64,000 bases of DNA, taken from positions 2,079-66,078 of the forward strand of contig JACRCC010000046.1 of the NCBI GenBank assembly GCA_016234405.1, in the 5' to 3' direction. Positions 11,375 to 12,319 of the stretch are shown here, piece after piece. The number at the start of each line of letters is the position of its first letter. Positions within the stretch are counted from its first letter, which is position 1. The notes beneath the pieces are model-generated. The model searched no databases and had not been told where the DNA came from. It saw nothing but the letters and a program-made list of their open reading frames with translations. The translations under genes and the position numbers were made by a program. This DNA is from Deltaproteobacteria bacterium. Its GTDB lineage: Bacteria > Desulfobacterota > GWC2-55-46.

Positions 11375-12319
11375 TCAGTATCCGAATTCCTTCAAGTCAG
11401 CCGGGTTCTTAGTCCAATCTTTTTGCACCCTTACGAATAACGTCAAAAAAACCTTTACGCCGAGGAGACCTTCGATGTCAAGGCGCGCTGCAATGCCTAT
11501 GCGCTTGAGCATGGCCCCATCCTTACCGATGAGTATGCCCTTCTGGGATCCCTTCTCCACGCTTATCGTTGCGTCAATCACTACGACACCCTTGCCTTTT
11601 TTCTCCTTGAAGCCGTCTACGACTACTGCGGTTGAATAAGGCACTTCGTCCTTAGTGAAATGAAAAATCTTTTCCCTGATTATCTCCGCGACGATGAACC
11701 GTTCGGGCTGGTCCGTTACCGCATCTTCCGGAAAGTAACGCGGCCCATCGGGGAGGAATTTTTTGACCGCGGCGATGATGAGGTCAACGCCGTCGCGTTT
11801 GAGGGCGGAAATCGGGATAATCTCGTGAAAGGGAAAGACCTTCGCATATCCCGCGATAAGCGGGAGAAGCGCCGGTTTGTCCATTGCGTCCACCTTGTTC
11901 ATCGCAAGCACGACCGGGCGCTTGAGCGTTTTGAGCACGTCAATTATAGGGCGGTCCGCGTCCATAGACTTGGCTCCGGCGTCGCACATATAGACCACGG
12001 CGTCAACGTCCGATAGCGCGGAGGCGGACTCCGAAGCCATGAACTCGCCCAGCGCCACTTTCCGCCTCATACACTTGTGAGGCATCGAAGGCTTGTGATG
12101 GAAAGTGGCGCTGGGCGCGCCCCTGCCCGCGTGTATGCCTGGCGTGTCAATGAAGATTATCTGGCAGTCCTTCGCCGAGTAGACCCCGCGTATGCTGTTG
12201 CGCGTGGTCTGGGGCTTGGCCGAAACAATGGAAATTTTTTCTCCGAGTATGGCGTTAAGGAGAGTGGACTTCCCGACGTTGGGCCTGCCGATTATCGTAA
12301 CGAAGCCTGATTTGAACAT
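11375..12319 (-). CDS. era: GTPase Era, carrying an in-frame 25-codon palindromic-repeat insertion after the DTPGIH motif
   Basis: GRPNVGKSTLLN, DTPGIH and a KH domain (VFVRVQKDW...); start at MFKSGFV. Confidence 0.9.
   Translation of the reverse strand: MFKSGFVTIIGRPNVGKSTLLNAILGEKISIVSAKPQTTRNSIRGVYSAKDCQIIFIDTPGIHAGRGAPSATFHHKPSMPHKCMRRKVALGEFMASESASALSDVDAVVYMCDAGAKSMDADRPIIDVLKTLKRPVVLAMNKVDAMDKPALLPLIAGYAKVFPFHEIIPISALKRDGVDLIIAAVKKFLPDGPRYFPEDAVTDQPERFIVAEIIREKIFHFTKDEVPYSTAVVVDGFKEKKGKGVVVIDATISVEKGSQKGILIGKDGAMLKRIGIAARLDIEGLLGVKVFLTLFVRVQKDWTKNPADLKEFGY
12046..12120. repeat. Repeat family R3 copy (GCGCCCAGCGCCACTTTCC ... GGAAAGTGGCGCTGGGCGC) lying inside era, in-frame
   Basis: 75 nt; other copies at 27585-27661, 57401-57480 and the variant at 38591-38675. 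Confidence 0.8.

Follow-up and report, generated by a model that had tools for sequence, protein, structure and literature searches.

Background

Rickettsia palindromic elements (RPEs; Ogata et al. 2000/2002, as summarised in PMC10969869) are dispersed palindromes of about 150 bp that occur both between genes and in-frame within unrelated housekeeping genes. The peptide gained in this way is short and falls at expected loop positions, and the open reading frame (ORF) is not destroyed; in some RPE families nearly half of the copies are located in genes, and no transposase has been identified for RPEs. The hosts of RPEs (RPE-1 to RPE-10) are obligate intracellular alphaproteobacteria. Here we describe a similar case in a stretch of 64,000 nucleotides, called the window below, from the metagenome-assembled genome (MAG) of a Deltaproteobacteria bacterium (assembly GCA_016234405.1, contig JACRCC010000046.1), which represents a free-living groundwater lineage of the Thermodesulfobacteriota type. 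A copy of a dispersed hairpin repeat, designated R3, lies in the window inside era, the gene of a deeply conserved ribosome-assembly GTPase. We consider it probable that the repeat was copied in-frame into era, that the allele is intact, and that the Era protein thereby gains a basic loop of 21 residues.

Several other kinds of short repeats are close enough to be compared with R3. The defining feature of repetitive extragenic palindromic (REP) sequences is a palindrome of 20-40 nt, one end of which bears a conserved tetranucleotide, either GTAG or CGTC (PMC3733652). In-frame fusions with genes have been described for MITEs (miniature transposable elements with inverted repeats) and similar repeats, namely QMITE1/2 of Coxiella, intragenic ERIC sequences, and Correia elements (PMC5896051, PMC10969869). 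Translational bypass elements, such as those of T4 gene 60 and the mitochondrial "byps", combine a stable hairpin in a coding region with identical flanking codons, the take-off codon being followed at once by a stop.

Era is a HAS-GTPase, i.e., it is devoid of the catalytic switch II glutamine, and it is essential in many bacteria, but not in all of them (PMC10582724).

Results

Palindrome inside the era gene

The protein encoded by the era gene of the window is identical to NCBI entry MBI5970464.1, "MAG: GTPase Era [Deltaproteobacteria bacterium]". It scores 358.9 bits with the NCBIfam Era equivalog model NF000908 (cutoff 237) and 293.9 bits with TIGR00436 (cutoff 116), and Pfam finds in it MMR_HSR1 and KH_2, i.e., the G domain and the C-terminal KH domain. 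The G1 motif occupies residues 11-18, the G3 motif DTPG residues 58-61, and the G4 motif NKVD residues 141-144. Nothing is missing from the G motifs or the KH domain, and every invariant residue of the family is retained.

The original prediction reported a palindromic repeat inside this gene, and the repeat is indeed there: the arm pattern GCGCCCAGCGCCACTTTCC is found at 12045-12063(+) and 12100-12118(-), and the DNA at 12046-12117 is a perfect palindrome of 72 nt (Table 1). Both strands of the element fold strongly, at -51 and -52 kcal/mol (z = -6.8 and -7.5), and in the era mRNA the 18-nt arms pair in a perfect stem of about 18 bp. As was also predicted, the coding sequence is open across the repeat; there are no stops, no frameshifts, and no other lesions in its 314 codons.

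Comparison with orthologs

The three closest Era orthologs (P0002-P0004; 80-82% amino acid identity by BLASTP, 85-88% over aligned columns) are all devoid of the insert. They read DTPG(I/L)H-A(K/R)GG-ALNEFM, and the window Era reads DTPGIH-AGRG-[APSATFHHKPSMPHKCMRRKV]-ALGEFM. Among 120 homologs, the segment from DTPG to FM is 16 residues long in 116 and 17-20 residues long in three; only in the window protein does it reach 37. Relative to the ancestral segment of 16 residues, the net gain is therefore 21 amino acids or 63 nt. The gap in the ortholog alignment falls exactly at the repeat, as expected in the original prediction, but the insertion had been put there at 25 codons, which is not what either the three nearest orthologs or the 116 homologs indicate. 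The insert had also been placed between the DTPGIH motif and an LGEFM helix. The position near switch II holds; however, the "GRG" assigned to the insert is ancestral (AKGG/ARGGG in the orthologs), and the "LG" assigned to the host is encoded by a repeat arm. Since GCG codons stand at both junctions, the 21-codon gain can be placed in alternative ways that differ by 3 nt.

The empty site is GGC GCG CTC AAC GAG TTC in the three orthologous loci, while the window has ggcgcg[68-nt core]cgagttc. Consequently, about 5 host nucleotides (CTCAA) are replaced by the 68-nt core, which gives the net change of +63 nt. Alignments by blastn of the window with three relatives (L001, L003, and L004; 85-88% nucleotide identity) break exactly at 12055/12109. 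The ancestral codons CTC AAC (Leu-Asn) are CTG GGC (Leu-Gly) in the window, and all three substitutions raise the complementarity to the opposite arm; thus this site is element-derived sequence that has replaced host sequence. Asn is found at the changed position in 116 of 120 homologs. Gly is present there in Era of S. aureus (9jkp, chain B, ...KLGDYM) as well as in the window protein, so the replacement is natural in other Era lineages and conservative for the family as a whole. At the junction we observe GCG and CG microhomologies (2-3 nt) and no duplication. Judged by these alignments, the insertion postdates the split from relatives that are 85-88% identical at the nucleotide level.

R3 copies inside other genes

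The class IV aminotransferase ORF of the window receives its C-terminal tail from an R3 copy that overlaps its 3' end (Table 1). The overlap was anticipated under the gene name pabC; the evidence supports the product as a class IV aminotransferase (PF01063) and goes no further. In related MAGs, a copy at locus L008 lies in-frame in the gene of RdgB/Ham1 (Pfam, 7.7e-63), adding 24 residues that are missing from nine orthologs. Another copy (L011) is in-frame in a gene for a 773-residue protein with TPR and SLT transglycosylase regions, with Pfam domains on either side of the repeat. A GT9 glycosyltransferase (L033) reads through the R3 element to a new C-terminus. In total, three mid-gene copies and at least two C-terminal tails are located in genes, out of 36 copies. 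All three mid-gene copies are in-frame, with the reservation that the search was biased to such cases. The gap in the orthologs together with the in-frame copies in the RdgB and SLT transglycosylase genes bears out the likening of the era insertion to the in-frame elements of Rickettsia.

The reading frames in which the arms are used differ between these genes (PSATF...KVALG, AQHHFP...ESGAG, RPAPLS...). The R3 arms are open in all six frames, and in whole elements 145 of 216 frames (about two-thirds) are open. This compares with 117 in mononucleotide shuffles and 133±5 in dinucleotide-preserving shuffles, 17 of 1000 of which reached 145; for non-redundant copies, the numbers are 89 against 80.5 under the latter control. 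The excess is marginal once dinucleotides are controlled for, and we dropped the strong claim that R3 has adapted so as to contain no stops in any frame.

A side observation concerns the annotation of the gene at L008:4951-5619. The NCBI (PGAP) RdgB product (P0121, 207 aa) begins at an internal Met immediately ahead of the element. The conserved RdgB N-terminus MKIILATKNKGK, which belongs to the same ORF, precedes this Met by 15 codons and also lies just before the repeat. The R3 repeat may have misled the calling of this start site.

The R3 family

Six arm hits are found in the window against 0.03 expected by chance. Besides the era copy, the window contains three R3 copies, as the original prediction listed them, including the variant (Table 1). 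A scan with one genome per species revealed 33 further intact copies in approximately eight groundwater Deltaproteobacteria/Thermodesulfobacteriota MAGs. The consensus has a core of 64-70 nt with 16-nt terminal inverted arms (CCCAGCRCCRCTTTCC / GGAAAGYGGYGCTGGG), which are often extended to 18-21 nt, and a diverged centre of 32-38 nt. The centres are homologous, and subfamilies are common to several genomes. The near-invariance of the arms among loci L005-L037 is partly circular, as copies were selected in the scan by their arm sequence; unbiased in this respect are only the copies of the window and a few degenerate ones, and the window copies agree in their arms with the scanned ones.

Over 74 nt, the era copy and a copy in another MAG (L032) share 90.5% identity, whereas the identity between the window and this MAG in syntenic genes amounts to only about 65%. 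The element is thus far more conserved than the genomic background, and it is either constrained or recently exchanged.

Arm position 7 covaries (26 A:T and 6 G:C pairs with G:T intermediates), while position 10 has 32 A:T and 4 G:T pairs only. The stems extend into the flanks by 1.58 bp on average against 0.79 by chance, a value not reached in any of 2000 shuffles. An asymmetry of mismatches between strands (7 G:T against 1 A:C) was set aside because the mismatches are few and non-independent and the centre can invert in place.

Some copies belong to larger shared repeats with 25-125 nt of common flank (L005/L019/L031; L012/L016/L021; L010/L020/L023; L015/L029). In one MAG, three copies (L012:1437-1506, L021:2664-2733, L016:3142-3211) have flanks in the same orientation that are identical over more than 60 nt on each side, yet the L016 centre is the reverse complement of those in L012 and L021. 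Two explanations are conceivable: an in-place flip of the centre between the arms, or independent hits on one target in both orientations.

A T-run of at least four T next to the stem was found in 3 of 36 copies, and an A-run on the opposite side in one. No intrinsic terminator (hairpin and T-run) was detected in 27400-27900 around the intergenic copy at 27585-27659. Greedy ORF calling proved too noisy for assessing the intergenic context, and a preference of R3 for gene 3' ends is not claimed. The R3 pattern gave no hits in viral contigs, none in phage records, and one 21-nt chance hit in plasmids. The Rfam gathering scan of the window returned only a tRNA, so R3 corresponds to no described RNA family, and a full-text literature search for the arm sequences gave no match.

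Possible route of R3 spread

The mobility of R3, as claimed originally, is deduced from its dispersal and from filled and empty sites. Cut-and-paste transposition appears to be the less likely route. Perfect 4-nt direct repeats flank 2 of 36 copies against 0.74 expected, and 5-6-nt repeats flank none; the idea of a target-site duplication, raised by CTTG...CTTG at the L008 copy, is not supported across the family. In approximately 400 kb (the window and 45 loci), all arms are members of tight pairs about 52 nt apart, and there are no widely spaced pairs able to bracket a transposase. A tblastn search of the same sequences for an ORF of the RAYT (REP-associated tyrosine transposase) or IS200-like type with an E. 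coli YafM sequence, which is a weak test, gave a best E-value of 0.24. Since neither a target-site duplication nor a partner transposase is seen, a REP/RPE-like or template-switch route seems likelier. Templated copying or microhomology-mediated repair would also fit the era junction better, because of its microhomologies and the 5 nt replaced without duplication. An insertion followed by an in-frame 9-nt deletion in era is possible too.

We suggest the following course of events. A short, non-autonomous, hairpin-forming repeat of the R3 family, which a clade of groundwater MAGs has in common, would have been copied into era after the lineage split. Its 68-nt core would have been placed between ...GGCGCG and CGAGTTC..., with the loss of about 5 host nucleotides. 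As a result, the Era loop between G3 (DTPG) and the switch II helix would have grown by a basic segment of 21 residues, and the Ala-Leu-Gly that opens this helix would be encoded by the R3 arm itself. Most likely the ribosome reads straight through the hairpin, in which case peptides such as GAPSATFHHKPSMPHK are expected, and the extra residues form a flexible surface loop with the GTPase still working. In such a gene, only in-frame, stop-free events at structurally permissive positions would be expected to survive; the era allele presumably did so because the net change is a multiple of three, is stop-free, and falls in a surface loop.

Features of the window

Table 1. Positions of the era element, the other R3 copies, and associated features in the window
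Feature	Position	Strand	Description
era coding sequence	11375-12319	-	314 aa, MFKSGF...EFGY*; NCBIfam, Pfam, identity to MBI5970464.1
R3-family palindromic element in era	12046-12117	.	perfect palindrome, 72 nt
68-nt core of the era element	12048-12115	.	CCCAGCGCCACTTTCC - 36 nt - GGAAAGTGGCGCTGGG
Arm 1 of the era palindrome	12046-12063	.	mRNA codes (K)V-A-L-G-(E), including Ala-Leu-Gly in place of ancestral Ala-Leu-Asn
Arm 2 of the era palindrome	12100-12117	.	mRNA codes A-P-S-A-T-F
Net extra 63 nt (21 codons, A68-V88)	12056-12118	-	APSATFHHKPSMPHKCMRRKV, pI 11.1
Codons L90-G91	12047-12052	-	CTG GGC (orthologs CTC AAC, Leu-Asn); element-derived, host sequence replaced
Intergenic R3 copy	27585-27659	.	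37 nt downstream of ORF 27018-27548
Variant R3 copy	38591-38675	.	longer arms GCGGGGCGTCCAGCGCCGCTTTGG; intergenic, near tRNA 38399-38471(-)
R3 copy over 3' end of class IV aminotransferase ORF	57402-57477	.	supplies last ~12 residues (RPAPLSTAKDAD) and stop codon
Class IV aminotransferase ORF	56521-57441	+	306 aa; PF01063, 3.2e-48, domain end at residue 265; C-terminal tail element-encoded
GTAGCTCAGGCC...GGCCTGAGCTAC repeat family	13789-13853, 30831-30878, 31926-31971, 39191-39252, 51877-51910, 53847-53898	.	second repeat family, GTAG-tagged

The ORF directly upstream of era (12340-13752, minus strand, 470 aa) encodes a product that starts like a TatD-type hydrolase. Its counterpart in the relative L001 (467 aa) has both PF01026 (TatD_DNase) and PF04055 (Radical_SAM). 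The fusion appears to be conserved between L001 and the window, with the Pfam evidence coming from the L001 protein alone. In L001 (GCA_040961595.1), and also in L002, two extra genes without Pfam domains separate the fusion gene from era, and two further genes separate era from der (L001:7405-10004 and 11162-13741). The window (10060-13752) and L003 are without these extra genes, and the fusion gene, era, and der are directly adjacent.

Other repeats are present in the window as well. A second family, unrelated to R3 and based on GTAGCTCAGGCC...GGCCTGAGCTAC, is GTAG-tagged, often tandem or inverted, and resembles classical REP sequences. Two 78-nt repeats (16240-16317 and 33476-33553; 83% identity) have GGTTATCGGTTATC-type units in inverted arrangement, and a pair of 50-nt direct repeats (51807-51856 and 55025-55074; 98% identity) is 3.2 kb apart. 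Short repeats rich in CCTACC/CCCTACC are located at 1-49 and 23793-23824, and also in the flanks of L010/L020/L023. Sequence like gagggtagggagg directly flanks R3 copies in a sister MAG. Two identical, strong sigma-70-like promoter matches (TTGACA-16-GATAAT, 11/12) lie on the plus strand at 27671-27698 and 27818-27845, the first just downstream of the intergenic R3 copy at 27585-27659 and the second inside the start of the next ORF.

Discussion

Function of the interrupted gene

We consider translation of the insert and a functional Era most likely, judging from the open frame and the retained motifs. The structure model points the same way within its limits. In an AlphaFold2 model based on the 120-sequence alignment, the G and KH domains are confident, the helix downstream of the insert is preserved, and the insert is a low-confidence loop in an otherwise Era-like fold. 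The confidence score (pLDDT) falls below 50 mainly in switch I (residues 28-40) and in residues 61-98, and also in a short third segment, residues 198-202. The top PDB matches of the model are all Era structures: 9jkp (E=2.6e-32), then 7c1o, 3iev, 1wf3, and 1ega. The original prediction proposed to model whether the insert forms a surface loop; the model shows a loop, at low confidence. The missing catalytic Gln could leave the switch II loop of Era more permissive than in Ras-like GTPases. The insert creates no terminator-like site in era in either orientation (scan of 11300-12500).

Several points weigh against an intact, functional allele or narrow its basis. The allele comes from one assembly contig, and it may be a minority allele or an assembly error. 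MBI5970464.1 is a singleton cluster on one contig in a collection of 15 billion proteins. Neither an exact look-up in the assembly index nor a metagenome scan with the conserved era anchor TGCCAGATAATCTTCATNGAYACNCCNGG, which was aimed at filled and empty alleles, found a second assembly of the insert-bearing allele; all that the scan recovered were unrelated Era genes (DTPGYLKPRYELQERM) of sludge organisms. A co-existing empty allele would be recognised by the join GGCGCGCTCAACGAGTTC. A second, uninterrupted era may be present elsewhere in the MAG. The junction is not a clean insertion, given the replaced nucleotides and the microhomologies, which makes the mechanism proposed above tentative. 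Switch II is functionally sensitive in GTPases, and retained Era function is a conclusion from sequence. Our search for in-gene copies took spanning open frames only and would have missed frame-breaking insertions (pseudogenes). Finally, the low AlphaFold2 confidence is compatible with a loop and proves nothing about it.

Alternative explanations

A bolder view goes beyond an in-frame copy in a working gene. R3 could be an active, transposase-independent system of "protein-coding palindromes" of free-living bacteria that is copied on hairpin or microhomology templates and has spread between genomes of about 65% identity, with the era insertion being a functional remodelling of switch II (a regulatory loop or an mRNA control hairpin) rather than a neutral passenger. 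Copying instead of transposition is compatible with the absence of target-site duplications, the replaced host bases in era, and the inverted centre of L016 relative to L012/L021. Taken as a whole, we hold this view to be unlikely.

It is also quite unlikely that the interrupted era is impaired or non-functional, either as a young pseudogene or in a cell in which Era is dispensable or has a second copy, and that the intact frame is mere luck. An insertion of a multiple of three nucleotides has about a two-thirds chance of being stop-free, and a single in-frame case is not improbable (about 0.2). In addition, Era is not essential in every bacterium (PMC10582724), which also qualifies the original description of the repeat as tolerated within an essential gene, and switch II is a sensitive site. 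However, outside the insert the protein is 85-88% identical to its orthologs, all invariant residues are kept, and not a single further lesion has accumulated. The gene remains in the conserved era-der context, which relatives share, and the other mid-gene R3 copies, for all the bias of the search, are in-frame too.

We find it very unlikely that the insert or its mRNA hairpin has gained a function, e.g., as a regulatory loop that alters the GTPase cycle of Era or its partner binding, or as a double-stranded RNA stem that tunes the stability or translation of the era mRNA. The position in switch II, the strongly basic peptide (pI 11.1) in an RNA-binding host protein, and the perfect stem of about 18 bp would suit such a role. 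Against it, the insertion is restricted to a single lineage and is absent from relatives at 85-88% nucleotide identity, i.e., it is young. The same frame of the L032 copy codes for nearly the same peptide (translated by hand), which speaks against special adaptation, and stop-codon depletion in the family is marginal.

The possibility that an assembler spliced the repeat into era, or that the allele is confined to a minority of cells, seems highly improbable to us. The source is a MAG, with the singleton protein and the lack of a second assembly mentioned above. However, era continues in one and the same frame on both flanks. No other copy in the window has the centre of the era copy, and the family shares arms of 16-19 nt only. 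Arms of this length should be shorter than the final k-mers of typical assemblers and fall far short of read length. Nor would a chimeric join account for the change of CTC AAC to CTG GGC and for an exact multiple of three, and analogous in-frame copies occur in independent MAGs.

Least probable of all is that the hairpin stays untranslated, through a ribosomal hop in the style of T4 gene 60 or "byp" from the GCG codon of A68 to the identical GCG codon of A89 exactly 63 nt further on, with a very stable hairpin between them, or through removal at the RNA level: skipping would give a product of ortholog-like length (IHAGRGA-LGEFM, with GRGA-LGEFM at the join, as against APSATFHHKPSMPHK... in the translated insert), but the putative take-off codon is not followed by a stop and translation could proceed in an open frame all the way, which makes bypass unneeded, the GCG repeat follows trivially from the palindrome sequence, the other in-gene copies use different frames that are also open, and Rfam shows no known splicing or bypass signals. 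The likeness of era to bypass elements is thus one of resemblance only.

Comparison with known systems

The preferred reading, an in-frame R3 copy in a working era, invites comparison with the systems introduced above. Like RPEs (PMC10969869), R3 is a dispersed palindrome found between genes and in-frame within unrelated, undisrupted housekeeping genes, where it adds a short peptide at expected loop positions; a transposase is identified for neither. R3 is set apart by the host phylum and by size, as its 68-75 nt are roughly half of an RPE, and the sequences seem unrelated as far as could be judged. The in-gene fraction given above for R3 is much lower than the nearly half reported for some RPE families.

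With REP sequences, REPINs, and bacterial interspersed mosaic elements (BIMEs), R3 shares GC-rich hairpins that are mostly extragenic and near gene ends, a partly mosaic arrangement with other short repeats, and stems extended by covarying flank bases. As in REPINs, conservation is higher in the arms than in the central spacer, and there is no target-site duplication. The occurrence of R3 within larger repeats is reminiscent of BIMEs, but the window R3 copies share no flanks. The ends of R3, (CG)CCCAGC.../...GCTGGG(CG), have neither GTAG nor CGTC, and its unit is 64-70 nt rather than 20-40.

R3 has in common with MITEs its terminal inverted repeats (16-nt arms, often 18-21), its small size, its origin from non-coding sequence, fusions to host ORFs that arise occasionally, in-frame or at the C-terminus, and basic encoded peptides. 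However, MITEs are typically 100-400 bp long and R3 is much shorter. The target-site duplications of MITEs are not found, 5 nt being replaced and not duplicated in era, and a parent insertion sequence with R3 ends was not seen among the tight arm pairs in the roughly 400 kb sampled. Without target-site duplications R3 is no classical MITE, and without GTAG/CGTC it is no tagged REP; it resembles RPEs in behaviour and would be related to them by kind and not by descent.

Conclusions

The era insertion is a new example of a phenomenon known from Rickettsia and not a new kind of system. R3 is a small, defined family, with its 16-nt arms, no target-site duplication, and both filled and empty sites, which makes it useful for studying the movement of hairpins. 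Gene callers can be misled by such repeats, with RdgB of L008 as a case in point. In the window era, nature provides a switch II mutant with 21 inserted residues, whose effect on the GTPase cycle could be tested. Selfish palindromes inside proteins are not peculiar to the obligate intracellular Rickettsia; they are also found in free-living uncultured groundwater bacteria, and even a ribosome-assembly GTPase that is deeply conserved can be struck by them in its switch II loop.

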